Assembly: GCA_021513695.1 (NCBI GenBank)
Contig: CP084166.1
Coordinates: forward strand, 1,440,001 to 1,504,000
Origin: Candidatus Heimdallarchaeum aukensis
Lineage (GTDB): Archaea > Asgardarchaeota > Heimdallarchaeia > Heimdallarchaeales > Heimdallarchaeaceae
DNA: 64,000 nucleotides
Direction of reading: 5' to 3'
A program made the position numbers and the translations under genes. Positions 1 to 18,540 of the stretch are shown here, in pieces. The notes under the pieces were generated by a model, which saw only the letters and a program-made list of their open reading frames with translations, was not told the DNA's origin and did no database searches. How positions within the stretch are numbered: the stretch's first letter is position 1; every line of letters begins with the position of its first letter.

Positions 1-54
1 GGCACCTGCCTGCGGAGCAGGGTATCGCAGGTTCAAGTCCTGCCTGGCCCGCCA
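1..54 (+). tRNA. tRNA-Arg (anticodon GCG), 3' portion only; the 5' part lies outside the window. CCA is genome-encoded.
   Basis: Reads as anticodon stem CCTGC/GCAGG with 7-nt loop CTGCGGA (U33, anticodon GCG, G37), a 5-nt variable loop GTATC, a T-arm GCAGG-TTCAAGT-CCTGC, acceptor 3' strand CTGGCCC, discriminator G and CCA ending at 54. Confidence 0.65.
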
Positions 55-57
55 TTT

Positions 58-708
58 TTACAGAAGTGAATGTTTTGTTTTATAAAAGGGGCTTGTCTTT
101 TTCAAGGGAACCTCCAAAAATGCTTCTGCAAACCCCACTTGTGCTTGTGTACCTCTCATTTTTGTTCTATACTTATGAAACTCAATATAGAAATTATTTC
201 CTCCTTTGTCGAGCTGAGAACTATAACATTTCATAGCTTTTTCTTTTACTTCAACAAAATCTGAAATGTCAACAAGTACATGAGGGTTCGATAATAGAAC
301 TGTCGTTTCAGTGAAATAAAGCTTAGAAACAATAAAGGAGTTTGAATACTGTGTTTCATGTGCTGCCCATTCTATTGCCTCTTTAACCATAGAACTTGTT
401 AAACGATGTTCAACATGATAATCATTATCCATATGGGTCACTATTATTTCAGGACGATAAGTAAGAATAAAATCAATAATTTGATTTTTCATTTCTACTT
501 CATTATTTTCTATTGTTTTGTAATTTAGGATTATTGCTTTTTTAACGTTTAAAATCTTTGTAGCTTCTATGTATTCTTTTTTTCTTACTTCATTTGAAGT
601 CAAACAAAGCGAATATACATTATTTCCCAAAGCGGAATAGCGAGCAATGGTTCCTCCTGTACTAAAACTTTCATCATCAGGGTGTGCAAAAATAAAGGCA
701 ATATTCAT
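58..708 (-). CDS. LmbE/PIG-L family N-acetylglucosaminyl deacetylase
   Basis: N-terminal 'FIFAHPDDESFSTGGT' (AHPDDE zinc-binding motif of the PIG-L family). Start moved to the ATG at 706-708 ('MNIAFIF...'), because the longer ORF adds a hydrophobic leader. Confidence 0.7.
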   Translation of the reverse strand: MNIAFIFAHPDDESFSTGGTIARYSALGNNVYSLCLTSNEVRKKEYIEATKILNVKKAIILNYKTIENNEVEMKNQIIDFILTYRPEIIVTHMDNDYHVEHRLTSSMVKEAIEWAAHETQYSNSFIVSKLYFTETTVLLSNPHVLVDISDFVEVKEKAMKCYSSQLDKGGNNFYIEFHKYRTKMRGTQAQVGFAEAFLEVPLKKTSPFYKTKHSLL

Positions 709-761
709 AAAGAAAATTAAAAAAAAGTAGAGATAAAGATTTCTATCTTCTAAAAAAATCA

Positions 762-1757
762 TTATTTTTTGGTGATATAGTCTACTGCATTAATCCCTGC
801 CTTGTATCCTTCACCCATTAATATTGCACAATAATCTTTTTCTCCTGTTATTACTCCTGCTGCAAAAAGTCCTGGAATGTTTGTTTCTTTTATATTATTT
901 GTTTCTAAGAATCCTTCTTCATCAATTCTTATATCGAGTTCTTTCAACATTGAGAAATCAGGTTTATCTTTTAATTCTATAAAAACTGCATTTACTGAAA
1001 GTTCTTTTTCTTCTCCATCTTCAACAAATTTTATTCCAGTTACAAATTGTGACCCCACTACTTCAACCTTTGATAGATCAATTCCATATTTTATTTTTAC
1101 ATTTGGTGATTTTTCCAGTTTTTTCATGAAACGTTTGTCAATGTCAAGAGTAGATGATGGACAAAGAACAGTGACTTTTCTGCAATATTTTCTTAAGAAA
1201 AGAGCTCCTCTTGCAGCGAAATTATCTTTTCCAATAATGCACACTTTCTTTCCTCTAAACAAAGCTCCGTCACACACCGCACAATAAGATAAACCTTGTC
1301 CTTCAAATTCCTCTTCTCCCTTAACTGCACCTTTCAATTCTGGAAGATCATAAGCTAGAATAACAGCCTTTGCTTTGAATGATTCCCCATCTTCGGTCAC
1401 TAAAACAAAATCTTCTTCTTTTATGATCTTTGAAATTTCTTCCTCTTCAATCTCAATTCTTTTCTCTTTTACCTTTAAATTATCATCTTGTTCATCAGAA
1501 GATGAAAAATAAGAAATATATTCATTGTTAAATTTTTCAATTTGCCCCAAAATCTGAACAATGTAATCAACGCCCACTACGCTTTCAACCCCAGGAATTG
1601 TGTCAATGGTTCCTTTTTTTGCTGTATTTGTATCATAGGGTATTCCAAAAAGTTTTATTTTAAGGTCTGGGTTTTTTGAATATGCAGCTATCGCAGCTGA
1701 TAACCCTGTCAATCCTGAACCAATTATAGCTAAATCAATAGTCCCATCTCTATTCAT
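762..1757 (-). CDS. Thioredoxin reductase-like FAD/NAD(P)-dependent disulfide oxidoreductase
   Basis: N-terminal dinucleotide-binding 'DLAIIGSGLTGLSAAIAA', redox-active 'CAVCDG' motif, second Rossmann 'KKVCIIGKDNFAARGA' and C-terminal 'GLFAAGVITG'. Start taken at the ATG at 1755-1757 ('MNRDGTIDLAIIGSG'); the upstream ORF extension overlaps the divergent wHTH gene. Confidence 0.7.
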   Translation of the reverse strand: MNRDGTIDLAIIGSGLTGLSAAIAAYSKNPDLKIKLFGIPYDTNTAKKGTIDTIPGVESVVGVDYIVQILGQIEKFNNEYISYFSSSDEQDDNLKVKEKRIEIEEEEISKIIKEEDFVLVTEDGESFKAKAVILAYDLPELKGAVKGEEEFEGQGLSYCAVCDGALFRGKKVCIIGKDNFAARGALFLRKYCRKVTVLCPSSTLDIDKRFMKKLEKSPNVKIKYGIDLSKVEVVGSQFVTGIKFVEDGEEKELSVNAVFIELKDKPDFSMLKELDIRIDEEGFLETNNIKETNIPGLFAAGVITGEKDYCAILMGEGYKAGINAVDYITKK

Positions 1758-1879
1758 ATAAGAAGTAAACACAGAATTAAAAATAAAGTTAACTATCGAT
1801 TTTTTTGCGGATAGTTTTTCGACATCCTTTTTATAAAATAACGAGAAAATATATATAGAAAATTTTATGGGGACTAAAA

Positions 1880-2098
1880 ATGGGCAAACAAGAAATTTCT
1901 GTTTCAGGACAAAGATTAATTCAATTACTTGAAGAAAAAGGTCCTTTGACACAAAAACAATTAATTATTGAGTCAGAGATACCTGCTCGAACAGCTAGAT
2001 ATGCCTTAAAAAGATTAATCGAAATGGGATTGATCATAAAAAGGAATAATTTAGCAGATATGAGAAGCGTCTATTATTTCTTAGTTGAGGAAAACTAA
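1880..2098 (+). CDS. Small winged-helix transcriptional regulator (72 aa)
   Basis: 'GQRLIQLLEEKGPLTQKQLIIESEIPARTARYALKRLIEMGLI' is a typical HTH plus wing. Divergent from the trxB-like gene. Confidence 0.5.
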   Translation: MGKQEISVSGQRLIQLLEEKGPLTQKQLIIESEIPARTARYALKRLIEMGLIIKRNNLADMRSVYYFLVEEN

Positions 2099-2133
2099 TC
2101 TATAGTAACTTCCCCAACTTTTTATTTATATTA

Positions 2134-3708
2134 CTATATTTTAGCTGTGTAATTGATTTTGTTGTTTGTTTCACTCCCAGGGAATATTCCAAGTATTCTC
2201 CTAAAGTTAGAAGGAATAAAGACTTCAGATACTACAATTGCTCCATCAGAAGAGATATCTATAATATTAAAACTGTTTTCACTACTTGCAGTTTTTTGAG
2301 AAGAAAAAGTATTACAGTTTACAAAAACTGTTTTCTCAACTCTCGTACAGAAAGCTCGACCTAGATGACCTGACATAACTAAGTTCACATTTGTATCAAC
2401 TAACAACCGTAGAACATCTCCAGCATCTTCTAATGCAGAAGTTTCTCGGGTACCTGGAATAGGCACAAGATGATGATGCATTATAACACTATTAAATTGC
2501 TTACTTCGTTCTTTTTTAGCTTGATGTACATAACGATGTAACTTTAATTGAGTTCTCCTCCCAACTACACCAATATCAGTTCCAGCTTCAGAGGTATTAA
2601 GAACATAAAAATTAGAATTTTCTTTTTCTATTAAATGTTCAATGTCAAAATATTTGTTTAGGAGAGATTCTCCATACCCTCTAAGATCTCTTGGCCCTGG
2701 ACAGAAAATAAACTTCTCTTTGTATTTGAGAAAATGTTCTATTGCTTGTTCATATTCATCAGAGTATCCACTGTATGTCAAATTACCATTATGAATTATT
2801 ACATCTGGTTTTGTATCATCTATCAATTTCATTCCTTTTTTAAAATACTCAGCTTGTTTAGACCAAGAAGAACCAAAATCTGTTCCTGATAATTGTACAA
2901 TGCGTAACCATTTTCCTCCAGAAGAATTAACCATACGAAAACGCCTTGTTATGGTTTTAATCTCTTCATGCAGTTCATTTCCTTTAGATTCAATAGTTTT
3001 AATTTTCACATCTTTCTGAGGTCTTATTTCTACTAAATTAAAAGAATGAGGTTCTCCGCTCCTTGTTTTATAACTTGAAATCGAACCAGAGGAAATAATT
3101 ATAGTATCTTCCACTTTGTATACATTGGGATGATGTTTATGACCAGTAAAAACAGCATCTACACCATAGTCAAGCAAAATTGAAAGCATTTCTCCAGAAT
3201 CCACAGCATTAGACCTTTCTCTCCCCACCTTAGGAATTGGTAGTAGATGATGATGGAAAGCCACTATTTTTATTCTATCTTCTCCAAACTTAGTAAGTAT
3301 TTTTTTAGCAAAATCAAACGCTTTCCTTCCAAAACGACCACTATCTCGATCAGGAACACAAGAATCTAATCCAATAAAAAGAACTTTATCATCAACATCA
3401 AAAAAATCTCTTTCTCCCACCATCTTTTCCCAAACTTCGAACCCACCAGAACGACTGTCATGATTTCCGATGATCCAGTGGATCTTAGGGAGGTTAATTA
3501 ATTCCCTTAATTTATTTGCAAACACATAATCCTCATATAATCCGTCTTGAGTTAAGTCACCAGAAAAAATTCCGAAGTCTATTTTCAATTTATTTGCTAA
3601 TGAATTAATTTCATTCACTGCAGCAAAATATTCGGAAGAAACAAATTGAGGTCTAGAAGTTATGTGTGTATCACCAAAGTGAATTATCCTAACAGCTGAA
3701 TCACGCAT
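2134..3708 (-). CDS. Tandem-domain metallophosphoesterase (two calcineurin-like phosphoesterase domains)
   Basis: Domain 1 has 'IIHFGDTHI', 'GNHD' and 'GHKHH'. Domain 2 has 'IIHNGNLTYSG', 'FCPGPRDL' and 'MHHHLVPIPG'. Start set at the ATG at 3706-3708 ('MRDSAVRIIHFGDTHI'). Confidence 0.7.
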   Translation of the reverse strand: MRDSAVRIIHFGDTHITSRPQFVSSEYFAAVNEINSLANKLKIDFGIFSGDLTQDGLYEDYVFANKLRELINLPKIHWIIGNHDSRSGGFEVWEKMVGERDFFDVDDKVLFIGLDSCVPDRDSGRFGRKAFDFAKKILTKFGEDRIKIVAFHHHLLPIPKVGRERSNAVDSGEMLSILLDYGVDAVFTGHKHHPNVYKVEDTIIISSGSISSYKTRSGEPHSFNLVEIRPQKDVKIKTIESKGNELHEEIKTITRRFRMVNSSGGKWLRIVQLSGTDFGSSWSKQAEYFKKGMKLIDDTKPDVIIHNGNLTYSGYSDEYEQAIEHFLKYKEKFIFCPGPRDLRGYGESLLNKYFDIEHLIEKENSNFYVLNTSEAGTDIGVVGRRTQLKLHRYVHQAKKERSKQFNSVIMHHHLVPIPGTRETSALEDAGDVLRLLVDTNVNLVMSGHLGRAFCTRVEKTVFVNCNTFSSQKTASSENSFNIIDISSDGAIVVSEVFIPSNFRRILGIFPGSETNNKINYTAKI

Positions 3709-3775
3709 TGTGACAAGTATTTGTAAATGGATAAAAAACCTTTTTCTAAAAAATTTAAAATGATTTTTTGAGAAT

Positions 3776-4171
3776 TTAAACAACAAGCAAGTTTAGCGGA
3801 TTTAGCATTCCAATAATCTTATCTCCATCCTTAACTATCAAGTGGTTTATTCTCTTTTCTTTCATTTTAACGAGAGCGACTGAAATTGTTTCTCTTGCTG
3901 AGATAGAGATTAATGGGCTAGTCATAATTTCTTTAATTTTTGTTTTATTGAAGTCTAGTTCCTTATAAAGAGCTTTTACGATATCTTTAGTTGTAATAAT
4001 ACCGACTGGCTCGTTATCATTTGTTACAAGTATGGAACCAATATCGAAATCTGCTATTATTTTAACAGCTTCATTTAGATTCTTTTCTCCTTCAATGAAT
4101 AATACACCTTTTGTCATAACACTTGTTACAGGTTCTTCATAAATAGGTTCTCGCAGAGTCATTATCCTCAA
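3776..4171 (-). CDS. CBS-domain pair protein
   Basis: 131 aa. Two CBS-like repeats ('VMTKGVLFIEGEKNLNEAVKII...GSILVTNDNEPVGIITTKDIV' and '...RINHLIVKDGDKIIGML'). Confidence 0.65.
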   Translation of the reverse strand: MRIMTLREPIYEEPVTSVMTKGVLFIEGEKNLNEAVKIIADFDIGSILVTNDNEPVGIITTKDIVKALYKELDFNKTKIKEIMTSPLISISARETISVALVKMKEKRINHLIVKDGDKIIGMLNPLNLLVV

Positions 4172-4305
4172 AATAAGCTTTTATTTGCTTTTATTAATGT
4201 TTTTGAAAAAAGATAATTACAAAAAAAAGAAAAATTTGATACGAAAAACTAATATGTAGATTCAATATAATAATAGAATCGAGAGAACTAGGAGTAGGAA
4301 AAAAG

Positions 4306-4752
4306 TTGTATGCGGATAGTCAAGAGATATTTCATTTAGCGACGCAATTACAAAGAATAAATTACTTGGGGCATGTACAAACTTTCCAAATTGAATTCGA
4401 CTATTTAGAAGAAGAGATGAAAAAGAAACTTCTGGATGTATTTAATGATTCTACGGGTATTGGTCAATTCAAGTCAGATATGATAATAATAGAACAAGTA
4501 GGGGAAAGAGATTTTCTTAAGACTGTTGAGACATTTCAATATATTGCTAAGGTTATGGGGGATCTGTCAGCAATAGATAGTATAACTGCTTTAGTAGAAA
4601 TAAATTACAAAAATGATGTTCATTTTATCGTTGTTTCCTTTGTACCACCTGATTCATTGGAATTAATAAGTACAAGTGAAAGTAAACTATATTTTGAACT
4701 ATTAAACTATGTAAGAACAAAATGGGCATTTTCAAAGACATTTATTCGATAA
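4306..4752 (+). CDS. Hypothetical protein (148 aa)
   Basis: Open frame with a TTG start in the ORF track and no recognisable motif. Possibly a roadblock-like alpha/beta fold, but unsupported. Confidence 0.35.
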   Translation: MYADSQEIFHLATQLQRINYLGHVQTFQIEFDYLEEEMKKKLLDVFNDSTGIGQFKSDMIIIEQVGERDFLKTVETFQYIAKVMGDLSAIDSITALVEINYKNDVHFIVVSFVPPDSLELISTSESKLYFELLNYVRTKWAFSKTFIR

Positions 4753-4770
4753 TAATTTCTACTAGTTTTA

Positions 4771-5856
4771 CTAGGCAAATGGTCTTTCTCTTAATAGGGC
4801 ACGAAGTAATTCCAAATTTGTTTGTATTTTAGGTGAATTGATGGGTAAATTTTCATTTTTTATGGAATCAATTATATCATATAATATATATGTTGCAATA
4901 TGGAAATCTATTGTATAACCATCTGGATACATCGATTGGAGGTCTTGTTCTACTCCAATTTCAGTTAGAGTTTTATCATATTCGTATATAAATTTCATAA
5001 CTTTATTTTTTGTTGAAGTAAAAGATTTAGTACTTTTATATTCGGTTATAACATCAAGAGCAAAATAAGCACCAATATCCTCGCATCTATCTCTATTAGC
5101 TTCTATAAATTCTGAATTAAAAACATAAACTTTCACTTTTTCGCAATCTTGTTCAGTTAAACTGGAACGGTCTGAAGATGAATCAATAACCATTTTTAAG
5201 TTAGACTTATGAAAATCACCATGAATAACAGCAGAACCCTTGGATTTTTGTAAAATAGCTAAGGAGGGAACAAGGAGATCAATCAATTCTTGTTCTAGAT
5301 CCTCGTTGTTCAATAAAGAGATCAAAAATAGAATGACCGTTTTATAAGGTTCAACATCAATTTCTTTTGCTCCTATCCCATGAATTAAGGCCAAGGTTTT
5401 TGCTGCGAGTTTTAATGAATCATCTTCTGAAATGTTGCTTTTTACGTCAATCCCTAAACCTGCTTCATAGATAATACACTTGTTTTTTGCACTTTTATAG
5501 ATAATAGGAGGAACTAAAACACAAGGATAGTTTTTCAATGAGGAAGCTAAAATTTCATAATTGCTAATTTCTTTGATATAAGCCTCTTCGTCCTTACTGA
5601 ACTTTACTATTAAATAAACGACATGTTTACCCAATTCAGATTCTAAATTATATGTTACAAAGTGTGTTTTTGAACGAGAGGAACGAAAATCCTGGGAAGT
5701 AACATCAACAATGGATATTTGATGGGGAGTAGCGTTTGTTTCTTTTTCAACAGATTGCTTAAAGTATTCTTTTAAACTCTCTCCAATTATAGTAAGTATT
5801 CTTTTCAGTTTTTCAAAATCTTTTTTATTGTTTGGAGAGTTATTTGCTTTTTGCAT
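4771..5856 (-). CDS. Kinase-like phosphotransferase (APH/choline-kinase fold) family protein
   Basis: Catalytic-loop-like 'VIHGDFHKSNL' (HGD motif), followed by a 'FNSEFIEA' D-x-E-like segment and an upstream beta-strand Lys region 'VYLIVKFSKDEE'. Confidence 0.45.
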   Translation of the reverse strand: MQKANNSPNNKKDFEKLKRILTIIGESLKEYFKQSVEKETNATPHQISIVDVTSQDFRSSRSKTHFVTYNLESELGKHVVYLIVKFSKDEEAYIKEISNYEILASSLKNYPCVLVPPIIYKSAKNKCIIYEAGLGIDVKSNISEDDSLKLAAKTLALIHGIGAKEIDVEPYKTVILFLISLLNNEDLEQELIDLLVPSLAILQKSKGSAVIHGDFHKSNLKMVIDSSSDRSSLTEQDCEKVKVYVFNSEFIEANRDRCEDIGAYFALDVITEYKSTKSFTSTKNKVMKFIYEYDKTLTEIGVEQDLQSMYPDGYTIDFHIATYILYDIIDSIKNENLPINSPKIQTNLELLRALLRERPFA

Positions 5857-5913
5857 TTAATTCAACTTATAGATATAATTCAAACTTATAAAAGCTTTAT
5901 GTGTTTACTATGG

Positions 5914-6300
5914 GGTAGTGTCTAGTTTTTATACCACCTCCTAGGCAAAAAGGAATTAAGGGGTGGGTGTCCAAGGCTCTGGTGGGGGCGAATGAAGTTA
6001 TAATAAAGCATAAAGAGAGTAAGAAAACCAGAGAGATGATCGGAGCCATAAATAGCTCGAATAGAACAGGTACAGTGGAGAACAGAGTGAAACCAACGAT
6101 AGGTCTTAAGACTGGCATTAAAGCGCTCAACATATGACCGTATACCACCACTAACAACAAGATGATTAAGCCCGAGACGAGATAGATAGGATAGAATAGC
6201 AGGAACCAGCATCAGTGACGACGATACGTGGTTTTGAGGCCCAACAGCGGAACCAATAACGAAAAGTTAGTAAGCACTCGAGGACACTACTACCTTTACT
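5914..6300 (-). mobile_element. Truncated copy (left ~385 bp) of the IS6-family element found intact at 54324..55089
   Basis: Begins with the same terminal inverted repeat GGTAGTGTCTAGTTTTT (5914-5930). It is ~75% identical over ~380 bp to 54324-54712. It encodes the transposase C-terminus ('...ERFNASLKTY...YNFIRPHQSL...PRRWYKN*') on the minus strand. There is no right inverted repeat and no target-site duplication, so this is a solo or partial copy. Confidence 0.7.
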
Positions 6301-8873
6301 GTTTACTCTAATGGAACATATGTTATTTCAGTCTCTGATCTTACTGATTTTGGTAAATATCAGTTAGTAGTATTATTAACCTTAGATGGTTACGTTGATC
6401 AAAGCTTCACTCTGAACATTTTACTTTTAGAGAGAGAAACAACATTGAGTTCAACTACAGGAACTAGCCTACAGATTTACACAATTGATACCTTGAATCT
6501 ATTTTTAGAATACAAAGACAAAAATACTGATACAGCAATAGAAGCAGATGATAATCAAATTTCTTTTGCTCAAGGAACAGGAAATGAAACTTTAACCCTC
6601 AGTTTTTACTTTGAATCAATAAGTTACAATGGTTACACAGTCACTCTTCATTCTTTCACTTTTGACCCTAATGAAGCTACTGCAGCAGGATATGTATTTG
6701 TTTTCAACATTACACTTTCAAAATTTGGATATTCTAACAATTCAATTATAATCTATTTAAGAGTTGATATCAATCCTTCTGATATTCAGTGCCTAGAAGA
6801 TAGTATACTTATTGATTCTTCACAACAAGCATCTTTTACAATTTTCTATATTGATACAGTTTCTAATACAAACATTACTGGTGCGTTCATTAGCGTGTTA
6901 CAGTTAAATGGTTCTTCTTCTGATATCGATTCACTTTTAGCTTATAGTTCTACACCCTTTTACATTGTCTATATTGATCCTGATAATGTAAATGCTGTAG
7001 ATAAGACCTTTATGTTTAATGTTACACTCTATAAGGCGGGATATGAGAATCAATCTTACATTATTTACCTAACCGTAGTGTATAATCCCACCACAATTAG
7101 TGCAGAAGAAACAGAAAGTACCATTTTTGCGGATCAAGTCGCAGAATTTACACTGTATTATATAAATGATAAAACAGATACATATATAGAAGATGCTTCA
7201 GTAACCATTGAAATTGTCAATGGTTCAATGTATATAGAAGAATATTATGCTACAGGAACAAGTCCCTATATGTTTATATTAACCCTTATGATTAAAATTC
7301 CTCAGATTTAACTTTTGAAATAAGAATCACAATATCAAAAGGAGGATATAAAGAACAATCTATAGTACTTTATTTGCATGTAAAGATTCATCCTACAAGG
7401 ATATTCTCCTCTAGTAGCACTCAAACAATTTATGCAGATGAAACAGCAGATTTCACTGTTTATTACTGGGATACTTACAATGTTTTAATTGAAGAAGCAA
7501 ACCATACAGTAGAACTTACTCTTGGTGATTCAATAGATGTTGAAGGAGTAAGTTTGTTACATAACCAAGTTCTAGATGCTTACATTATCTCTTTTGATTT
7601 TAATGACTTTACAGTAACAAATGAAACATTTATTTTTAACATTACAATGTGGAAACCAGGATTCGAAAATCAATCAATAATACTAACGGTAAAAATCCAT
7701 GATTTCATTAGATATGAATTAAGCATAAACATCGATAGCGATACTATTCAACTTCTAAGTACAGTAACATTTACATTAATTCTAAAAGAAGCTATTATAC
7801 AGTTACTTGCTGATGATAATACAAAATTAGCTTATTCTCCTATTGGAGAAAATGTAACTTTAACTTTATTCCTTCTCGATAATGCTAATAATATCATTGA
7901 AACATCTACATTTAATATTACAATAAGTGATATTCAAAATGGTAATTATATTGGTCAATTCAAATATAGAGTTGAAAATTGGAAAGCTAAAAGCCTTAAA
8001 ATAGAGTGCACATATCTTCCTAAACAATCAAATATTGTTTCAACAACGAACTTCGATCTAACTTTTGAAATAAAGTTTCCATATTTCAATGATCTTTTCT
8101 ATGAATATCTATCTTACATGATTGCAGCAATTTCAATAATTGCCGTAGCAGCAATAACCTTGGCTGTTTATTTTGGAGTAGTTCGTCCCAAAAAACAAAG
8201 GCAACAAGCAAAAAGAAAACAATATTGTGATACTGTGTCAAATATACTTCAAAGCGTCACATCCATAAAGAAAGTTCTTGTTGTTCATAAAGATACTAGC
8301 TCTCCTGTTTATGAATTAGACTTAGGTTCAGATATGAGAGTAAGTTCAGCGCTTGTGACTGGATTTTTGCAAGCTGTATCCACAATGGCAAAAGAGATTA
8401 CAGGAAAAGATAAAGATGTTGTCAAAAAGTTAGATTACGGAGATTTAATTGTTACTTCTGCAGGCACAAAGAACTATATTACTTACATTTTCTCAGATAG
8501 AGAACTTTCAGAAGATATAACAAATGGTCTAAAAGAGTTCGTAAAATACTTTGAGAAAAGATTTTCTCATGTTGCAGAAAACTGGATTGGTTCCTTAGAT
8601 GAATTTAAAAAAGCAGAAAAGGCAATTTTGCGTAATTTAACAGAGCACTTATATATTTGGACATTATATCCTATAACTACTAATCCAACAATGGAAAAAG
8701 AAGTAAAGAAACTAGGTCCAATGAGCCAAAAAATAATTAAATTCGTTAAAGATACAAAAGAAGTAACAATAGGAATAATACTTCAATATTTCAACAGGTG
8801 GCCAAAAGAAGAAACTATTTCACTTGTCTTTGCTTTAGTTGAAGATCATTACCTTCTTACAAAGAGAATATAA
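6274..8873 (+). pseudogene. Disrupted large repeat-containing surface (S-layer/adhesin-like) protein with a C-terminal TM helix and a cytoplasmic roadblock/longin-like plus wHTH-like domain
   Basis: One gene in two frames (6274..7311 and 7296..8873). There are ~90-aa internal repeats, each ending with '...F(V/M/I)FN(I/V)TL.K.G(Y/F).N(Q/N)S.I(I/L)(Y/T)L.V', recurring at least five times with N-glycosylation-like N-x-S/T sites. The frameshift lies near 7285-7320 and is verified codon by codon. The N-terminus is missing: the frame opens right at the edge of the IS remnant at 6274, with no start codon or signal peptide. A TM segment 'IAAISIIAVAAITLAVYFGVVRPKKQRQ' is followed by a ~240-aa cytoplasmic domain. 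Confidence 0.6.
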
Positions 8874-8939
8874 CACTTTTTCTTTTTGTCTTTAATGTTA
8901 ACTTTATTAATTAACCTAATTCTCTTTTTTTAGATTATA

Positions 8940-9659
8940 ATGAAAAAATGGGAAGGATATGCGATCCTTTGCGATATGGATGGTGTCATTATAAGTATAA
9001 AAGAGAGATGGATAAACCCCTTTGAAAAAGCATTAAGAAAGGTTAAAGAAGATATAGATGAACATGCTCTGAGAGAACAAGCTCCATCTTTACTTCTAAC
9101 ACATGGAGGAAGAAGTAAAAAAATATGGTTAAGAGCAATTTTCAAGGTTTGTGGTTATGCGGGTTTGTCTAAATTTCAATCTTTTAGAGTGCTAATAAAT
9201 GTTGGTTTAATGCTTTTAAAACCTAAAAACTTTAAAATTGTTCCTTTTGATGGAGTTGAGGAAACTTTAGAAAAACTAAAAGGTTTAGGATTTAAACTTG
9301 CTTTAGTTACAACGGCTTCGAATTTTACCATAAGGAGGTTAAAAAAACTATATCCTGAAATTCATTCTAAGTATGACTTTATTTTCACGAGAAATGATGT
9401 AAAATTTACTAAACCCTTTCCAGACCAATTAAATTTAGCAATTGAGAAATTAAATGTTGATAGAGATAAGTGTGTTATGATTGGGGATTTGATGACTGAT
9501 ATTCTAGCTGGTAAAAATGCAGGAGTTAAAACTGTAGCTATCCTTAGTGAATACCCATTTATTACTGAAGCTCTTTTATCATCAGTAGAACCAGATCATA
9601 TGATAGAATCATTTTCTTTACTTCCAGAGTACCTAGATGACATTTTTACAAATAAATAG
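8940..9659 (+). CDS. HAD-superfamily (subfamily IA) hydrolase/phosphatase
   Basis: Motif I 'ILCDMDGVII' (DxDG), motif II 'LVTTAS', motif IV 'GDLMTDILAGKNAG'. An insertion between motifs I and II forms the cap. Confidence 0.7.
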   Translation: MKKWEGYAILCDMDGVIISIKERWINPFEKALRKVKEDIDEHALREQAPSLLLTHGGRSKKIWLRAIFKVCGYAGLSKFQSFRVLINVGLMLLKPKNFKIVPFDGVEETLEKLKGLGFKLALVTTASNFTIRRLKKLYPEIHSKYDFIFTRNDVKFTKPFPDQLNLAIEKLNVDRDKCVMIGDLMTDILAGKNAGVKTVAILSEYPFITEALLSSVEPDHMIESFSLLPEYLDDIFTNK

Positions 9660-9754
9660 CTAAATAGCTAAAATTTCTAATGCACTAATATATTTTTCCT
9701 AGTCTATCATAAGAAAAAGTTCAAAAACGCTATTAAAAACGCTAACATGTAAGA

Positions 9755-10231
9755 ATGAAAAGGCAGTTTAGATTTCCGGAAGCTCTCCTCTATCAATCGA
9801 CCTATGTTTGGATAAAAGATATAGGAAGAGGTGTTTACGCAATAGGGATTACAGATTATGCACAATATTTGTTAGATGACATTGTCACAATTTCATTACC
9901 TGTTGATGACTATGTAGAACAAGGTGATGAACTAATTTCCATTGAATCTATTTACGAAACAATTGAAATTGAAAGTCCGTTCACAGGTAAGATTGTAGAA
10001 ATAAATGACGATGTAAAAGATAATCCTGAGCTCTTAAATGAAGACGCCTTTGGTTCATGGATCTTAAAAATTGAAATTAGCGATGAAGAAGAATTAGATG
10101 ATTTATATACAGCTGATGAAGTTTTTGATCTATTTCAAGAAGAACTGGAAGAACAAGGGGATGAAGAATTAACAAAAGAATTTGGTGCCTTTGTACAATT
10201 TAACGACGACAATGAAGATGGATGGGTCTAA
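9755..10231 (+). CDS. Glycine-cleavage H-protein-like protein lacking the lipoyl-lysine, with an acidic C-terminal extension
   Basis: Aligns to GcvH throughout ('YAIGITDYAQYLLDDIV', 'ISIESIYETIEIESPFTGKIVEIN', 'PELLNEDAFGSWILKIEI'). The position of the lipoylated Lys (ESVKAAS in E. coli) is Tyr here (ESIYETI). About 45 extra C-terminal residues are rich in D/E. Confidence 0.65.
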   Translation: MKRQFRFPEALLYQSTYVWIKDIGRGVYAIGITDYAQYLLDDIVTISLPVDDYVEQGDELISIESIYETIEIESPFTGKIVEINDDVKDNPELLNEDAFGSWILKIEISDEEELDDLYTADEVFDLFQEELEEQGDEELTKEFGAFVQFNDDNEDGWV

Positions 10232-10412
10232 TTTACTTCTTTTAAAAAAAGAAACCAAAGATTTTTATATTAAACTTTTTGTTGAGTTGTAGATAATAAT
10301 AGAGGACTTGATGCCTTGGAATTTCGATAGCACTATTATGGAAATCTGAATTAATTGTAAATTCTAGTAGAACAATTTTAAAAGTCCTTAACTATTTTGG
10401 AGTGTTAGGAGT

Positions 10413-11900
10413 ATGAACAACGATAAGGAATCTATTTTTTTACCACCAGAAGCTATTTTGATTTACAAAATAATTAGCGAAAAAAAGGAACTAGAAATCA
10501 ATGAACTTGAGAACATTTCAAAACTTTCTAGAGGAAAAATTGAATACAACCTTCCTTTTTTGCAAAAACACGATCTATTGGACAGAAAAGAGAGAATAAA
10601 CAAATACTGTTCTTTAACAAAGGAAGGAGAAGAAGCAGAGAAAAATCAATTGATTGAAAGAAGAATATACAACTTAATTAAAGAGAAAAAGAAAGTATCC
10701 TTTGCTCAACTTGGAGATTTTATTAAAGCAGACAAAAAAGAATTGAATGCAGGAGTAGGTTTACTACGAAAACTTGATGCCATCACAATTGAAAAAGGAG
10801 AAATAAGTATAAAACTGCCAGAAAAAGATATTAACCTTGAATTACAACAATATCTCACTAAAATAAAAAAAGAGAAAGTGAGTTATTCAGATAAAATTTC
10901 TCCCCTTGTTAAAAGAGGATTAGTTAATGTAATTGAGGAGAAACAATCATTTTTGATTATAAAAGTTCCTTATTCAAAAATAAAGTCCAGAATTAAAGAA
11001 TTAATTGAAGTAGGAAGATTGTCTTCAAATATGTTAAGAGATGGAAGTTGGAGAAAAACTCAATTGAAGGCATATAACCTAAAAGGGCAACCCCCCACTT
11101 ATTTTGTTGGGAGAAAACAACCTTATGCAAGATTCATTGATACTGTTAAACAGAAACTTGTTGCTTTGGGTTTTCAGGAGATGAGAGGGCCTATAGTAGA
11201 ACTAGAATTCTGGAATTTCGATGCCTTATTCCAAGCTCAAGATCACCCAGCTAGGGAGTGGTCAGATGTTTATAGAGTTTCAAACCCTAAACACGGTAAG
11301 CTTCCTAAAGAAGAATATGTTACTAATGTTCAGCAAGCTCATGAAAATGGGTATAATACAGGAAGTAAAGGTTGGAGATACAAATGGGACCCTAAAAAAA
11401 GCTCAAGACTGGTTTTACGAGCACAAGGCACTTCTGTCAGCGCTCGAACTCTAGTAGGTTTGAAAATTCCCTCAAAATACTTTAGCATTTCTCGATGTTA
11501 CAGACCAGATACTGTTGATGCTACTCATCTTTCTGAATTTAACCAAGTTGAAGGTATTGTAGTTGATCCTTCTATAACTTTCAGAGATCTTTTAGGAATA
11601 CTAGAAACGTTTGCCCTAGATGTTGCTGGAGCAGAAGAATGTACATTTAAGCCCGATTATTACCCCTTTACTGAACCTTCTGTTGAACTTAGCGTTGTTG
11701 ATCCAAATCTTGGAAGAATAGAATTTGGAGGAGCAGGCATCTTTCGTCCAGAGGTAACCAAACCATTTGGTATAGATGCACCAGTAATAGCTTGGGGTTT
11801 AGGAATTGATAGACTGTTCATGGTTAAGTACGGAATAACAGACATCAGAGAGCTATTTAGTCACAAAATGGAGTGGTTACGTTCCACAAAAATGGTATAG
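10413..11900 (+). CDS. pheS: Phenylalanine--tRNA ligase alpha subunit (archaeal type)
   Basis: 495 aa, with a long N-terminal wHTH region and a class II core ('FRPEVTKPFGIDAPVIAWGLGIDRL', motif 3). Immediately followed by, and overlapping the start of, the beta subunit. Confidence 0.9.
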   Translation: MNNDKESIFLPPEAILIYKIISEKKELEINELENISKLSRGKIEYNLPFLQKHDLLDRKERINKYCSLTKEGEEAEKNQLIERRIYNLIKEKKKVSFAQLGDFIKADKKELNAGVGLLRKLDAITIEKGEISIKLPEKDINLELQQYLTKIKKEKVSYSDKISPLVKRGLVNVIEEKQSFLIIKVPYSKIKSRIKELIEVGRLSSNMLRDGSWRKTQLKAYNLKGQPPTYFVGRKQPYARFIDTVKQKLVALGFQEMRGPIVELEFWNFDALFQAQDHPAREWSDVYRVSNPKHGKLPKEEYVTNVQQAHENGYNTGSKGWRYKWDPKKSSRLVLRAQGTSVSARTLVGLKIPSKYFSISRCYRPDTVDATHLSEFNQVEGIVVDPSITFRDLLGILETFALDVAGAEECTFKPDYYPFTEPSVELSVVDPNLGRIEFGGAGIFRPEVTKPFGIDAPVIAWGLGIDRLFMVKYGITDIRELFSHKMEWLRSTKMV

Positions 11901-13604
11901 GTGAAAAAGATGGTCACTATAAAAGCAAGTTATACTAAAATGTTAGAAACTCTTGGGAAGAATCTTCCAATAGAAGAATTGGATAGACTACTTTCTTTTG
12001 CCAAATCTGAAATAGACGAATATGTAGAAGAAGAAGATATGCTAGTAATAGATGTAAAAACAAGTAACCGTCCAGATTTATGGATTCCTGAAGGGATGAT
12101 AAGAGAGATAAAAGGCATATGGGGAGAAGAAAAAGGTATTCCAAAGTTAGAACTAAAAGAAAGCGATTATAAAGTTATTGTAGATCCAAAACTATCTAAA
12201 TCCAGACCCTTTATTGCTTGTGCTATTGCAAAAAATGTCACATTAACAGATTATAATATCAAACAACTAATGCAATTATCAGAAAAAATTGATCATTCCT
12301 ATGGAAGGAGAAGAAAAAGATCTTCTATTGGAATGTACAACTTATCCATGATAAAAAGCCCTATTGAATATAAAGTAATTGACAAAAATCACAAATTCAT
12401 TCCTCTTGGTTATACAGAACCACAATATCTAGAAACAATTTTAGAAACTCATGAAAAAGGAAAGGAATTTGGCTACATTGTCAAAGGTTATGGCCATTAT
12501 CCTATTCTTTTATCAGCAGATGGATTAACACTCTCTATGCCTCCAATCATCAACAGCAATGATGTAGGTAGAGTTACAGAAGAGACAACTGATATGTTAA
12601 TTGAAGTAACAGGAACTCACCTTGGTACAGTACATGTCGTCTTAAACATTCTATGCCAAACATTAGGAGATTTAGGAGCAGAATTATATAATGTAACAAT
12701 AGAATACCCAAAAGAGATATTGGATAAAACTATAGTTACACCTACAATAGAATATGAAGAAATTAAAATTAACCTCAAAGAGGTAAACAAATATCTGGGA
12801 ACTAAACTAAAACCGAAAAAGGTGGAGGAGGTATTAAACAAAAGAAGATTTGATGTCAAGAAAATAGAAAAAGACATGATGACAGTACTTATTCCTCCTT
12901 ATAGAACAGACATTTTACATTGGGTTGATATTGCTGAAGAAATCGCAATTGGCTTAGATTACAACAAAATGGGACCTACAAAATGGAAAGTCCTTACAAC
13001 AGGTGGGCTTTTACCTGAAACAGAAAGTGAAAACATTGTAAGAGATATACTTGTTGGAACTGGAGCAATAGAAGTAATAACAAACACCTTAACTGACCCT
13101 GAGATTCTAACAGCAAATGTTAACATTGAAGAAGACAATTTTGTAAAGATTTCAAATCCAGTAAGCAAAAACTATAGTGTTATTCGAAATATGATTTTCC
13201 CAAATTTAATAAATGTACTTTCTAAAAACACTCATGAAACATATCCCCAAATAATCTTCGAAGTAGGAGAAATTGTAAAGTTAGAAGAAGGAAGAACTTG
13301 GACACAAACAAACGCAGCTTATATGCTAGCGGACACAGAAACAAGCTTTGAAGATGCCCACAAGGTCCTAGATCAAATGATGAAATTACTAGAAACTGAT
13401 TATAACCTCATAGAGACTGAACATCCATCGTTTATTAGGGGCAGATGCGCAGAAATACAAGTTAATGGCAAAACTTGCGGGATCATTGGAGAGGTTAATC
13501 CAGAGGTTTTAGAAAAAAACCAGATATGGATGCCTACAGTAGGTTTTGAAATAGAATTACCATTAATTCCCTCTTTAGAATGTAAAAAGAAGTATACTTA
13601 TTGA
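11901..13604 (+). CDS. pheT: Phenylalanine--tRNA ligase beta subunit (archaeal type)
   Basis: 567 aa, with B3/B4 and B5 domain hallmarks of archaeal PheT. GTG start at 11901 abutting the pheS stop; an ATG at 11910 is also possible. Confidence 0.85.
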   Translation: MKKMVTIKASYTKMLETLGKNLPIEELDRLLSFAKSEIDEYVEEEDMLVIDVKTSNRPDLWIPEGMIREIKGIWGEEKGIPKLELKESDYKVIVDPKLSKSRPFIACAIAKNVTLTDYNIKQLMQLSEKIDHSYGRRRKRSSIGMYNLSMIKSPIEYKVIDKNHKFIPLGYTEPQYLETILETHEKGKEFGYIVKGYGHYPILLSADGLTLSMPPIINSNDVGRVTEETTDMLIEVTGTHLGTVHVVLNILCQTLGDLGAELYNVTIEYPKEILDKTIVTPTIEYEEIKINLKEVNKYLGTKLKPKKVEEVLNKRRFDVKKIEKDMMTVLIPPYRTDILHWVDIAEEIAIGLDYNKMGPTKWKVLTTGGLLPETESENIVRDILVGTGAIEVITNTLTDPEILTANVNIEEDNFVKISNPVSKNYSVIRNMIFPNLINVLSKNTHETYPQIIFEVGEIVKLEEGRTWTQTNAAYMLADTETSFEDAHKVLDQMMKLLETDYNLIETEHPSFIRGRCAEIQVNGKTCGIIGEVNPEVLEKNQIWMPTVGFEIELPLIPSLECKKKYTY

Positions 13605-14534
13605 TCATTTCTCTTCTTTCTTTTTGTTTTCATTTTTTATAATTAACAAAATACGTTCCCATATAGAGTCTAGCAATGAGTGAATAACTCTTTGTTGATC
13701 TTGTGTTTCAATAATAGAGATTCGATGTCTATTTGCTTCTTCAACTAGATATCTCTGAATAGTTCGTATTTCCTCAAAAGCATTAATATATCGTTCTGCG
13801 TTTCTTTCTACAACTTTTAACCCCCTCCTCTTGAAACGTTCAAGATGCTCATGCTCATCTTTTAAGTGGAGAAGAAAAAGCATTACATGAGGTTGGGTTA
13901 TTGTTTCTGTTTTAAACAAGTTAGGAGATAAATGGACACCTTCAATAATTGTATTTTCTCTAGAATACATAGCCGATTCAATGATAGCCTCAACACCCAC
14001 AATGACTAATCTACTTTGTTCTTCAAACCCAACAATACTTCTATCTAAAATTGGGTTTATTTCAGGTTTTAAGTACTTATAAGCTTCATATGAGCTCCCA
14101 TATAACTCTGGGACTAGTTTTTTTGAAATACTTTGCCTTAATATCTCTCTTACCATATCAGTTCCAATAATATTTGTTATTTCTAGCCTTCGGGAGAGCA
14201 ATGAGGCAATTGTGCTTTTTCCTATTCCAGGCACTCCAGCTAATAAGATAATAATTGGTTTATATACTCCCTTTTGCTCAAAAGCAATGTATCTCTTAGC
14301 ATATAAAGGATTAAATTTTTCGAGATTATCAATAATTATCTGAGAAAAAGCTTCTTGAGAGAGTGTTTTGTCTGTTTTTCCTACTTGTAATTCGATTTGG
14401 GTTGCTAGTTCATAAGCATTAATTTCATCTAAGCCTATAGCATAAAAAGTACGAGAAAGAATACCCTTAGAAAAAATAGTTTTTCTTCCTGATTTTGTCC
14501 TAAATTTAATAAAGTTAGATGAAGGTTTACTCAT
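13605..14534 (-). CDS. 2-phosphoglycerate kinase family P-loop kinase (paralog 1)
   Basis: 'ILLAGVPGIGKSTIASLL...IIGTDMVREILR' matches the P-loop and downstream motif of archaeal 2-PGK (Methanothermus fervidus type). Confidence 0.7.
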   Translation of the reverse strand: MSKPSSNFIKFRTKSGRKTIFSKGILSRTFYAIGLDEINAYELATQIELQVGKTDKTLSQEAFSQIIIDNLEKFNPLYAKRYIAFEQKGVYKPIIILLAGVPGIGKSTIASLLSRRLEITNIIGTDMVREILRQSISKKLVPELYGSSYEAYKYLKPEINPILDRSIVGFEEQSRLVIVGVEAIIESAMYSRENTIIEGVHLSPNLFKTETITQPHVMLFLLHLKDEHEHLERFKRRGLKVVERNAERYINAFEEIRTIQRYLVEEANRHRISIIETQDQQRVIHSLLDSIWERILLIIKNENKKKEEK

Positions 14535-14548
14535 TGATAATCTTAGGT

Positions 14549-14566
14549 TTTAAAAGTATAAAAATC
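14549..14566 (-). promoter_or_regulatory. TATA-box-like element about 24 nt upstream of the 13605..14534 start codon (leaderless-type spacing)
   Basis: Minus-strand TTTTTATACTTTTA centred ~24 nt upstream of the ATG at 14534. Confidence 0.3.
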
Positions 14567-14644
14567 TGATGAGAGTTAAATCATTTTATAAAAAATTCCT
14601 AATTTGATAGAAAAACAAAGTAAGTTAGTTAAAACATCAAAACT

Positions 14645-14659
14645 TTATTATATAAAAAA
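14645..14659 (+). promoter_or_regulatory. TATA-box-like element about 26 nt upstream of the 14678 ATG (leaderless-type spacing)
   Basis: TTTATTATATAAAAA at 14645-14659, with the ATG at 14678. The divergent arrangement shares a 143-bp AT-rich intergenic region. Confidence 0.3.
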
Positions 14660-14677
14660 TTTCAATTTTTTTTTAAT

Positions 14678-15568
14678 ATGAACTTTGAATCCCCAATATA
14701 CGTGAAGAGAGAGCAAGCAAGTTATTTATTTAGCAGAGGGATTCTGGCTACAAGACTAGAGGTTATAGGTCTTGAGTTTCAACAAGCTTATGAATTATCT
14801 AACAAGATATATCTAAAAATCAAAAAATTATCTGAAAATACAATATCCAAGAATAAATTAGATGAATTTGTTTATGATTCAATTAAAGAAAAATATTCTG
14901 AAAAACTAGCTGAAGAATACTTAACAATCGAAAAATTAAGAGATACAAATATACCTTTGTGGATTGTTATTGCAGGAGCTATTGGAGTGGGAAAAAGTAC
15001 ATTATCAAGGAAAATCGCTTCAGACTTTGGGATTAGGCATGTAATTGGAACAGACATAGTAAGAGATATTTTAAGAAAAACACTATCTAAAGATATTGCT
15101 CCACAGCTGCATTCTCCTTCATATTTAGCTTATAAAACATTAAGACCAATTTATAGTACACGTTACGATGAAGTGATTATTGGTTATGAAAATCATTCAA
15201 AATATGTTAATATTGGAATCGAAGCTCTGTTAAATAGAGCTGCAATGGAAAACATTTCAATAATTATTGAAGGAGAACATTTACTGCCTTCTTTTTTTGA
15301 CAAAGAAACAATAAAAATTTCAAATTTAATCTACATCACTATCTCTTTAGAAAATGAAAAGATGCATTTAGAAAATTTAAGTTCACAGTATTCTAGAGAA
15401 AAAGAAGAGCTAATTAAAAACTTTAAAAATATTCGGAAAATTCATGATTTCCTTGTCCACGAAACAAAAATCAGAAAGTTACCTGTTATCGAAGCTAAAG
15501 ATAAAGATGTGGTACTTGCAAATGTGAGAAAATATATTATTGAAAAAGCTAAAAAGATAGTTTTCTGA
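14678..15568 (+). CDS. 2-phosphoglycerate kinase family P-loop kinase (paralog 2)
   Basis: 'IVIAGAIGVGKSTLSRKIA...VIGTDIVRDILR' parallels paralog 1 along the whole length. Divergently transcribed from it. Confidence 0.7.
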   Translation: MNFESPIYVKREQASYLFSRGILATRLEVIGLEFQQAYELSNKIYLKIKKLSENTISKNKLDEFVYDSIKEKYSEKLAEEYLTIEKLRDTNIPLWIVIAGAIGVGKSTLSRKIASDFGIRHVIGTDIVRDILRKTLSKDIAPQLHSPSYLAYKTLRPIYSTRYDEVIIGYENHSKYVNIGIEALLNRAAMENISIIIEGEHLLPSFFDKETIKISNLIYITISLENEKMHLENLSSQYSREKEELIKNFKNIRKIHDFLVHETKIRKLPVIEAKDKDVVLANVRKYIIEKAKKIVF

Positions 15569-15613
15569 CTTAAATGACATATAGTTAAAACACTAAAATT
15601 GAATATCTGAGTA

Positions 15614-16468
15614 GTGAAACAAATGCTAACAGAACAAGTTTGTTTAGAATGTATAAAGAAAACTGCTGATAGAGCAATTGATAGGCTAAAAAAAAATGAA
15701 ATTCGAAAGGAAAACATCCTAAACAGTATTAACCTATTTTTAGACAAAGTTGATAAAAAATATTCTCCAATTGAAATAAACTTTGAAGTCTTCAATTTAA
15801 TAAGCTCGCTTTCAGAAATATATGACCCCTTGAAAGAATTAAAAGAACAAGCAAATCTTAATGCGAATCAAGTTTTACCGTATATAAAAGAAGAAGAGAA
15901 GAAGTCAGAAGATATTTTATTTTCTCTTATTAAAGCTTCAGTCGCAGGAAATATTATAGATTTCTCTATTGATAAAGAAGTAAATTTACTAAGCACCCTA
16001 AAAAAAGTACTAAACAGTAGTTTCGCAATAAACGATTATGATCTATTCCTTGAAAAGTTGCAAATAACAAAAAAGGTTCAACTTTTGACAGATAACGCGG
16101 GTGAAATTATTTTTGATTTAGAATTATTATCTTTTCTGCAAAAAAGATTTAACAAAAAGATAGTGATAATAACAAAACGCTTTCCTTTCTCCAATGACAT
16201 TACACTAAAAGAAGTTAAGAGGTTAATTAAGAAAGTAGAATTAAAGGGAAAAATAATTAGCATTAATAATAAAAAGTATCGAAGTTACAAGAAAAAAATA
16301 AAGAAGAAATTAGACAGCAAGGCAGTAGTTATAAGTAAGGGACAAGGTAACTATGAACTTTTATCAGATGAAAAATTGAATATCTTTTTCCTTCTAATGG
16401 TTAAATGCCCAGTTATTGCCAAAAAAATTGTCTGTAATGTTGGAGATGTTGTCTTTTTTCAAAAATAA
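15614..16468 (+). CDS. DUF89/ARMT1-like metal-dependent phosphatase (damage-control phosphatase family)
   Basis: 'LLTDNAGEIIFDLELL' (DN.GE..FD motif) and C-terminal 'VISKGQGNYELL' (KGxGNyE), both conserved signatures of the DUF89 family. Confidence 0.6.
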   Translation: MKQMLTEQVCLECIKKTADRAIDRLKKNEIRKENILNSINLFLDKVDKKYSPIEINFEVFNLISSLSEIYDPLKELKEQANLNANQVLPYIKEEEKKSEDILFSLIKASVAGNIIDFSIDKEVNLLSTLKKVLNSSFAINDYDLFLEKLQITKKVQLLTDNAGEIIFDLELLSFLQKRFNKKIVIITKRFPFSNDITLKEVKRLIKKVELKGKIISINNKKYRSYKKKIKKKLDSKAVVISKGQGNYELLSDEKLNIFFLLMVKCPVIAKKIVCNVGDVVFFQK

Positions 16469-16525
16469 TCTCATAGCGCCAAACTATTAAAAAATAATAT
16501 AAATAAGCTAATTTTAATCGAAACA

Positions 16526-17458: not shown

Positions 17459-17545
17459 AAATATTCAACGATTTTGATTTTTAACAAAGTTTATTTTTCT
17501 AAAATCCCTTAATATTATCAACAACGATACTCTGAGGAAAATTTA

Positions 17546-17998: not shown

Positions 17999-18062
17999 CT
18001 TTTAAAAGAAATTTTAGTAGAAAATTATTTAATCAACATCATATTATTGGATATGTTAAACA

Positions 18063-18530: not shown

Positions 18531-18540
18531 GTTTTTTATT

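Follow-up and report, generated by a model that had tools for sequence, protein, structure and literature searches.

Members of the IS6 family of insertion sequences (IS) are compact elements of ~0.7-0.9 kb that carry a single transposase open reading frame (ORF) and short terminal inverted repeats starting with GG, and their hallmarks are an 8-bp target-site duplication and transposition through cointegrate formation. In the adjacent deletions known for IS26 and the IS6 family, and for IS1, an IS terminus abuts an intact flank on one side, host DNA is lost on the other, and a gene is inactivated. A similar configuration was found in a stretch of 64,000 nucleotides (nt) from Candidatus Heimdallarchaeum aukensis (contig CP084166.1, positions 1,440,001 to 1,504,000 of the forward strand; hereafter, the window), in which a partial IS6-like element at position 5914 is joined to the remnant of a large gene. 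The region 5914-8873 very probably represents the broken 3′ 44% of a cell-surface protein gene of ~1,956 codons, which is now a pseudogene. The likeness to the described deletions is incomplete, however, since classical intramolecular replicative transposition leaves the IS whole, whereas the element found here is cut at ~position 375 of 766 and ends in a microhomology junction. The locus itself is a genuine but ordinary case of IS-linked gene decay.

The protein formerly encoded here can also be set against well-described systems. Its predicted ectodomain is comparable to S-layer proteins, such as Bacillus anthracis Sap, Geobacillus SbsC and the Sulfolobus SlaA/SlaB entry 8qox_B, although it shares with them only 7-13% sequence identity. 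Those proteins have no large conserved cytoplasmic domain, whereas the Heimdallarchaeum protein has one. On the cytoplasmic side, a parallel is offered by the longin SNAREs (Sec22b, VAMP7 and Ykt6), in which a longin-type fold on the cytoplasmic face of the membrane is joined to a membrane anchor. The SNAREs are, however, tail-anchored proteins arranged as longin, SNARE motif and transmembrane (TM) segment, with hardly any external part, while the order here is ectodomain, TM helix and a predicted roadblock/longin domain, with no SNARE motif. Roadblock/MglB and longin domain proteins are a further parallel and include Asgard examples (PDB 8yqg, 9jue and 7yh1). Those of Asgard archaea were described by Tran et al. 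in 2024 as soluble forms or as fusions to small GTPases or TRAPPC3, and the word "transmembrane" appears nowhere in the text of that study (PMC10933270). In contrast, the roadblock/longin domain considered here would constitute the cytoplasmic tail of single-pass surface proteins of 1,000-2,900 amino acids (aa), followed by a conserved helical module. The combination of an S-layer-like ectodomain and a roadblock/longin tail was not described in the Asgard roadblock/longin literature searched, which is not proof of novelty.

Truncation and internal lesions of the remnant

The locus was compared with three relatives. A protein search with the reconstructed protein led to L001, a contig of a Heimdallarchaeaceae metagenome-assembled genome (MAG) encoding P0001 (1,292 aa; 91% identical to the reconstructed protein). 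The second relative was the H. endolithica PR6 locus (L002, CP084167.1), and the third was P0004, an intact 1,760-aa protein from the more distant genome GCA_054001415.1. The identity between the window and PR6 (87-88.6%) agrees with the 88% average nucleotide identity published for the two Heimdallarchaeum genomes (PMC8813620).

It was observed that positions 1-5909 and 6288-18554 of the window are collinear with L001 at 92.5-97% identity, the left part being made up of three blocks (1-3953, 4016-5521 and 5642-5909) and the right part of one. Between them, 3,485 bp of L001 (8198-11682) have no counterpart in the window, which holds instead only 5910-6287, that is, 4 nt followed by the IS fragment, and the comparison with H. 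endolithica revealed the same replacement pattern. The DNA lost comprises a ~200-bp upstream region with the promoter region, a 374-aa ORF starting MSNNNYRKIGLIFTLIILFSLNLANP... that includes the signal peptide, and the next ~720 codons. In this way, the deletion removed the start codon, the signal peptide and the first ~1,094 codons, and the window retains codons ~1095-1956 of the reconstructed gene. The plus-strand frame opens at 6274, right after the stop codons TAG TAA at 6268-6273, and its first possible start is a TTG at 6445. The preliminary description of the stretch, made from its letters alone, had proposed that a frame without start codon or signal peptide opens at the end of an IS copy, and that the gene lost its 5′ end in the same deletion that took away the right half of this copy; the synteny with both relatives bears out this proposal.

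At the right junction, ~15 nt are similar in the IS and in the gene: the homology to L001 and L002 begins at 6288, while that to the IS fades by ~6298. The endpoint of the deletion lies in the middle of a repeat, of which only a part is left (Table 1). The ~15 nt of similarity point to an illegitimate, microhomology-associated joining rather than to a transposition product, in which the IS would have stayed complete. A recombination event involving two copies of the element was also considered as the deletion mechanism and rejected, as it too would leave a whole IS.

Two further lesions were found inside the remnant. After position 7269 the window reads CCCTAT^ATG where both relatives read CCCTATTATG, and a nonsense codon follows eight codons (24 nt) past the missing T. 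The first frame ends at 7309-7311 and a continuation frame opens at 7296, as had been noted before, and both result from the missing T and the TAA. The frameshift had been placed at 7285-7320, next to a duplicated "YMFILTL / FEIRITI" segment, and here the earlier account needs correction: the shift occurs at the missing T, YMFILTL is an out-of-frame reading of ...YVYINPYD..., and FEIRITI is the normal motif strand of that repeat. Moreover, the gene had been regarded as inactivated twice, the TAA at 7293-7295 having been overlooked. The gene has been hit three times in the lineage of the window, by the 5′ deletion, the 1-nt deletion and the TAA.

The lesions are also present in two Logan short-read assemblies, each from a different run, which match the window at 99.98% (5916-11873) and 100% (5926-8930). 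Their contigs both begin within the IS fragment, which is what a repeated element would be expected to cause. An intact positional homolog exists, the lesions are disabling, and they recur in two independent assemblies, as is proper to a pseudogene. The ORFs of the pseudogene at 6445-7311 (288 aa) and 7374-8873 (499 aa) correspond exactly to UJG42033.1 and UJG42034.1 of Candidatus Heimdallarchaeum aukensis, which GenBank lists as two separate genes, K9W45_06100 and K9W45_06105, both encoding "hypothetical proteins". The annotation should be corrected, since these are two pieces of one pseudogene. No match to Rfam was found on either strand of 5000-9500, and no minus-strand ORF of at least 60 aa lies within the remnant at 6300-8873.

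Table 1. Coordinates of the features of the decayed locus and of the reference IS in the window
Feature	Position	Strand	Evidence
ATGG, 4 nt between the end of the relatives' homology (5909) and the IS terminus	5910-5913	.	Three-way junction comparison, blastn blocks
Terminal inverted repeat GGTAGTGTCTAGTTTTT	5914-5930	+	Identical to the two termini of the 54324-55089 element
Left ~375 bp of the IS6-like element; right half and right end gone	5914-~6290	-	78% identity, rve_3, GC content
Deletion junction, stretch similar in IS and gene (..TTAC..CCTTTA..)	6283-6299	.	Three-way comparison
Segment A, frame of 6274, codons ~1095-1421 of 1,956, without start or signal peptide	6288-7269	+	Homology to relatives
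Truncated predicted Ig-like repeat, HMM positions 43-88	6295-6420	+	Repeat HMM
Predicted Ig-like repeat copy	6472-6765	+	Repeat HMM, domain E 6.8e-15
Predicted Ig-like repeat copy (modelled copy 6772-7089)	6811-7077	+	
Predicted Ig-like repeat copy bearing both point lesions	7120-7385	+	Repeat HMM on repaired translation, domain E 4.1e-20
Loss of 1 nt, TT reduced to T (CCCTAT^ATG), causing the frameshift	7269-7270	+	Alignments to L001 and L002
Nonsense TAA in the homologous frame; TTA (Leu) in L001	7293-7295	+	Alignment
Segment B, to the natural stop TAA at 8871-8873; 499-aa GenBank ORF from TTG at 7374	7296-8873	+	ORF and annotation
Last predicted Ig-like repeat copy	7425-7697	+	Repeat HMM, domain E 1.4e-21
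TM helix (YLSYMIAAISIIAVAAITLAVYFGVV), followed by the basic stretch RPKKQRQQAKRK	8106-8183	+	Structure prediction and sequence
Predicted cytoplasmic roadblock/longin-fold domain, beta-beta-alpha-beta-beta-beta-alpha, preceded by a juxtamembrane helix	8265-8579	+	Predicted fold
C-terminal helical module of the tail	8598-8861	+	Tail model; conserved in family alignment A2
Full-length reference IS, 766 bp, 17-bp perfect inverted repeats (GGTAGTG...)	54324-55089	-	Flanked by the direct repeat TAAACCCCT
Ig, immunoglobulin; HMM, hidden Markov model.

These observations are consistent with a simple history. The IS6-like element would first have entered the intergenic DNA, ~200 bp ahead of the start codon. 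A microhomology-associated deletion would then have fused mid-IS sequence to the central part of repeat 4, with the loss of the right half of the IS and of 3,485 bp of host DNA, including the promoter region, the start codon, the signal peptide and ~1,094 codons. The remnant also lost one T after 7269 and gained the TAA at 7293-7295. The outcome is a remnant from which the surface protein can no longer be produced, because the promoter, the start codon and the signal peptide are gone and two internal lesions are present.

The reconstructed protein and its Asgard family

Upon repair of the three lesions found in L001, a single open frame of 1,956 codons with a signal peptide was obtained, collinear with P0004. 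The latter is a positional ortholog, having the same neighbours, with the ~356-aa minus-strand gene upstream and the genes for a HAD hydrolase, GcvH and PheRS downstream, and its locus is present in two assemblies (GCA_054001415.1 and a Logan assembly). The comparison of orthologous loci thus yielded both an intact gene at the same position and the length of the ancestral one. Judged from sequence, the ancestral product would have been a type-I membrane glycoprotein composed of a signal peptide, a large N-terminal region, ~8 Ig-like repeats, a membrane-proximal region, the TM helix and a cytoplasmic domain. A hydrophobic N-terminal signal, read by eye, is found in the 5′ ORF of L001 and in P0004, and was lost from the window copy.

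The ~90-aa repeats that had been recognised in the remnant were recovered with a repeat HMM of ~90 positions, which detected five copies in the remnant (domain E down to 1e-25), eight in P0001 and 326 in 82 proteins of the set searched; their motif spacing is 102-113 aa. At the DNA level only short chance pairs were found in 5800-9000, because the protein repeats are too diverged. In the structure models the repeats form tandem beta-sandwich domains, as in S-layer-type surface proteins, and the predicted ectodomain repeats are Ig-like, with a fold closest to S-layer domains. The ectodomain holds 16 N-x-S/T sequons, against 8.9±2.5 expected, and the tail holds one. Pfam reported no domain above threshold in either ORF or in seven family members. 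The surface-protein nature first attributed to the gene is upheld, the predicted Ig-like repeats, the signal in the relatives and the TM helix being features of such a protein.

The TM helix and cytoplasmic domain that had been proposed downstream were confirmed, the helix being followed by a basic stretch and a ~230-aa tail. The tail model (predicted local distance difference test score 85; predicted template modelling score 0.73) shows the five-stranded sheet flanked by helices, in the order alpha-beta-beta-alpha-beta-beta-beta-alpha, that characterises the roadblock/LC7-longin fold, and by the order of its secondary-structure elements the C-terminal helical module of the model looks winged-helix-like. 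Sequence profiles matched the tail only below threshold (Robl_LC7, E 0.044 and 14 bits for a cut-off of 23; DUF7198, E 5e-4 and 20 bits for a cut-off of 27), and the tail alignment, used as a profile against the sequences in the PDB, found no match. The tail of the remnant retains all nine family-invariant residues. The tail may dimerise or recruit a cytoplasmic partner such as a small GTPase. Another gene of the window (19239-19865, plus strand) encodes a soluble 208-aa paralog of the tail module without a TM helix (tail HMM E 3e-13; sub-threshold matches to Sybindin and Fuz_longin), and this protein could be a stand-alone partner or competitor of the module.

A word-indexed protein search with the tail alone returned one relative. 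The family emerged only when the TM helix plus tail served as query in an exhaustive HMMER search, and it comprises 372 representative clusters (defined at 50% identity) at E≤1e-3 and 63 at E≤1e-10. Most members have 1,000-2,900 aa with the module at the extreme C-terminus, and short members also exist. The members with a named source come from Heimdallarchaeota, Lokiarchaeota/Promethearchaeota and "Asgard group" MAGs, and all are annotated as "hypothetical protein"; the tail thus defines an Asgard family without existing annotation. No small GTPase gene was found beside family members in the nine loci examined, and no conserved gene neighbourhood among four diverse members, whose surroundings are unrelated. 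On one Asgard contig (L008), 2 kb separate the gene of a 1,176-aa family member (6001-9531) from a second large gene of 1,190 aa (11463-15035), which may be a tandem paralog. The reconstruction exposes a family of 372 clusters that would couple S-layer-like ectodomains to a cytoplasmic roadblock/longin fold, a candidate for surface-to-cytoplasm signalling or anchoring in Asgard cells.

Repeated loss and its possible causes

The decay of this gene is not restricted to the window. Besides the IS-linked 5′ deletion, the 1-nt deletion and the TAA of H. aukensis PM71, to which the window belongs, other lesions were found in the MAG population of L001, which for the greater part of the region shares ~97% identity with the window: a -1 frameshift just past the 374-aa ORF, the in-frame loss of 36 nt and a polymorphic deletion in the tail. 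The sibling MAG proteins compared (P0186-P0195) revealed that the 5′ frameshift is common to four MAGs and that the tail deletion, always with the same left breakpoint, occurs in three states, namely none (P0189), 23 nt (P0187, deduced from the protein end ..YIFSNKWSKRVRKIL) and 35 nt (P0001), which looks like stepwise decay after a first hit. In H. endolithica PR6, a 1,012-bp IS of another family is inserted at ~codon 40, and the gene also carries -1 and -2 frameshifts and a TGG>TGA change in the tail. This IS (L002 5425-6436) encodes a 314-aa DDE_Tnp_1 transposase and has 16-bp perfect inverted repeats, AGCATGTCCAAAAATT, and a 9-bp duplication, GACAATATA. No lesion is common to any two of the three lineages. 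The positional ortholog was thus inactivated independently in H. endolithica and in the conspecific MAG population, and it is intact in the more distant relative.

In each of the three pairwise comparisons, the gene pieces gave a ratio of nonsynonymous to synonymous substitution rates (dN/dS) within 0.05-0.16, and neighbouring housekeeping genes gave 0.02-0.08. A dN/dS of ~0.1 indicates that purifying selection acted during nearly all of the divergence and that each inactivation is recent. Recent decay is also indicated by the tail, in which none of the family-invariant residues has been lost. An ancient lesion hidden in all lineages was considered and rejected, given that the repaired frame of L001 is fully open and dN/dS is ~0.1. 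Along 6288-9100, the identity to L001 climbs steeply, from 88% where the remnant starts (its 5′ end) to 96.7% in the tail, and the neighbouring genes for HAD and GcvH reach 99.5-100%; the ectodomain is the most divergent segment in the 24 kb compared. Such divergence at a dN/dS of ~0.1 suggests that divergent ectodomain alleles were swapped between lineages by recombination. The ectodomain is a local divergence hotspot on which purifying selection acts, a pattern to be expected in a protein that faces viruses or partner organisms.

Other explanations could account for parts of this picture. If the internal frameshift were a sequencing or assembly error, only the IS-associated truncation would be real, and a single-base indel in an AT-rich, Nanopore-scaffolded genome (PMC8813620) invites such a suspicion. 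Nevertheless, the contigs of the published H. aukensis genome were built from Illumina reads, Nanopore serving for scaffolding (PMC8813620), the site is not a homopolymer (TT to T), the identical string is present in the two Logan short-read assemblies from different runs, and a separate nonsense substitution lies 24 nt downstream, which together make an error very improbable. It is barely credible that the gene is phase-variable (a contingency gene), or that it uses programmed frameshifting, and could be switched back on. Such switching is often found in surface proteins, and the relatives are also frameshifted in this gene, but no repeat tract occurs at any frameshift site in the window or in the relatives. 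Moreover, an in-frame TAA follows the shift in the window, where the loss of promoter, start codon and signal peptide is irreversible, and the lesions of the relatives include an IS insertion, a nonsense codon and deletions of 23-36 nt, none of them reversible. The presence of the same lesions in two independent assemblies, at a non-homopolymer site, itself renders both assembly error and phase variation very unlikely. The preliminary description had left the choice between a decaying and a phase-variable gene; the locus is decaying rather than phase-variable, because the frameshift lacks a repeat tract and there are three lesions in all.

It could also be argued that the 499-aa ORF, which comprises one repeat, the membrane-proximal region, the TM helix and the predicted roadblock/longin tail, is still expressed, giving a shorter membrane protein in which the cytoplasmic function is retained. 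Its tail is intact, with the nine family-invariant residues, the ORF is annotated in GenBank, and both short family members and the soluble 208-aa paralog exist. We regard this as improbable, since the ~240-aa segment before the TM helix has no signal peptide, the start is a TTG with no promoter evidence, and the tail was destroyed in two related lineages by the 35-nt deletion and by TGG>TGA, which indicates that it is not preserved by itself; the low dN/dS is uninformative in this respect because the lesions are much younger than the divergence measured. A different question is whether the three inactivations arose from selection for loss, through virus-receptor escape or adaptation to enrichment culture, rather than from neutral decay. 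This is possible, if somewhat unlikely: three lineages carry three to four different lesions each, with two different IS families in the 5′ region, and the ectodomain divergence (88% versus 99.5-100% next door, at a dN/dS of ~0.1) is typical of recombining surface antigens; PM71 and PR6 derive from laboratory enrichments and viruses of these hosts exist (PMC8813620). On the other hand, in IS-rich genomes a gene of such length offers a large target for mutation, a fixed frameshift is also present in the seemingly environmental MAG population, and the receptor role is hypothetical. Selection for loss extends the explanation by recent pseudogenisation and does not exclude it.

Some points weigh against the interpretation of the locus as a dead surface-protein gene. 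The lesions are known from assemblies, and a minority intact allele may exist in the population; the ORF at 7374-8873, whose TM helix and tail are intact, might conceivably have an internal promoter that drives its expression. We infer the order of IS insertion and deletion, of which the end state is seen directly, and the 4 nt ATGG at the left junction are unexplained by the proposed history. The surface location and glycosylation of the ancestral protein are likewise predictions, drawn from sequence and models.

With pseudogenisation as the preferred reading, a large gene for a surface protein is being worn away by mobile elements and small deletions in the Asgard lineage that is nearest to eukaryotes, and its three independent knock-outs constitute a natural experiment on the question of which proteins of the envelope are dispensable to these archaea. 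A broader proposal, which we consider unlikely and put forward tentatively, is that giant single-pass surface glycoproteins across Asgard archaea link the cell surface to the roadblock/longin-small-GTPase machinery shared with eukaryotes, and that the knock-outs in Heimdallarchaeum, at least three, result from recurrent selection for loss, for example as virus-receptor escape.

The IS fragment and other features of the window

The IS copy described at 5914 shares its inverted repeat with the element at 54324, as had been claimed, the 17-nt match being exact, and its identity is slightly higher than the ~75% first estimated. The 17-nt sequence GGTAGTGTCTAGTTTTT has four matches at ≤3 mismatches, against 0.32 expected, a number reached in none of 100 shuffles. 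Positions 5914-6298 align with positions 1-381 of the 54324 element (78% identity, E 3.5e-85), and the GC content of the fragment is 45%, against ~30% around it, as in the window as a whole. Translated from its minus strand, the fragment yields the C-terminal half of a transposase of the DDE type (...VVTDAG..., ...SYVERFNASLK..., ...YNFIRPHQSLG...), which matches rve_3 (E 1.5e-4) and is itself frameshifted; the minus-strand ORFs 5897-6160 and 5922-6212 (87-96 aa) in the fragment are remnants of it. The possibility that the fragment is a copy of the 54324 element was rejected, as the two are only 78% identical and its peptide (GLNHLVV...) is closer to the isoform P0170. By these sequence comparisons the fragment is a related isoform, ~78% identical, and was not copied from the 54324 element.

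The transposase of the 54324 element is broken by a frameshift and stop codons relative to P0167 of H. endolithica, an intact 232-aa transposase that is 97% identical to it. The best family model for P0167 is that of IS6 (NF033587), at 44.5 bits and E 1.4e-11, which does not reach the curated cut-off of 125; the IS3 model follows closely at 38.9 bits, and Pfam DDE_Tnp_IS240 gives only E 0.083. The architecture is that of a compact IS6 element, with 766 bp, 17-bp perfect repeats starting with GG, and one 232-aa ORF in P0167. The direct repeat TAAACCCCT that flanks the 54324 element matches over 9 nt, compatible with 8 nt plus one by chance, and the 5914 fragment has one end only. Hence, of the earlier designation as an IS6 fragment, the IS itself stands, whereas the family label appears weak, and the element is better called IS6-like than a proven IS6 member.

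On the left flank, the IS fragment lies only 53-58 nt upstream of the start codon of an uncharacterised minus-strand gene (4771-5856). Within this gene, a 120-nt stretch (5522-5641) is present in the window and apparently in H. endolithica, where the ORF has the same length of 361 aa, and absent from L001, whose version is for want of it 40 codons shorter (321 aa). A third trace of the IS in the window is a solo 41-nt remnant of the same terminus at 53095-53134 (minus strand; 83% identity), ~180 nt from a tRNA gene at 52801-52918. This 118-nt minus-strand gene, probably intron-containing, was detected with Rfam RF00005 at 52 bits and is missed by ARAGORN, which reported only the tRNA-Thr at 19000-19074.

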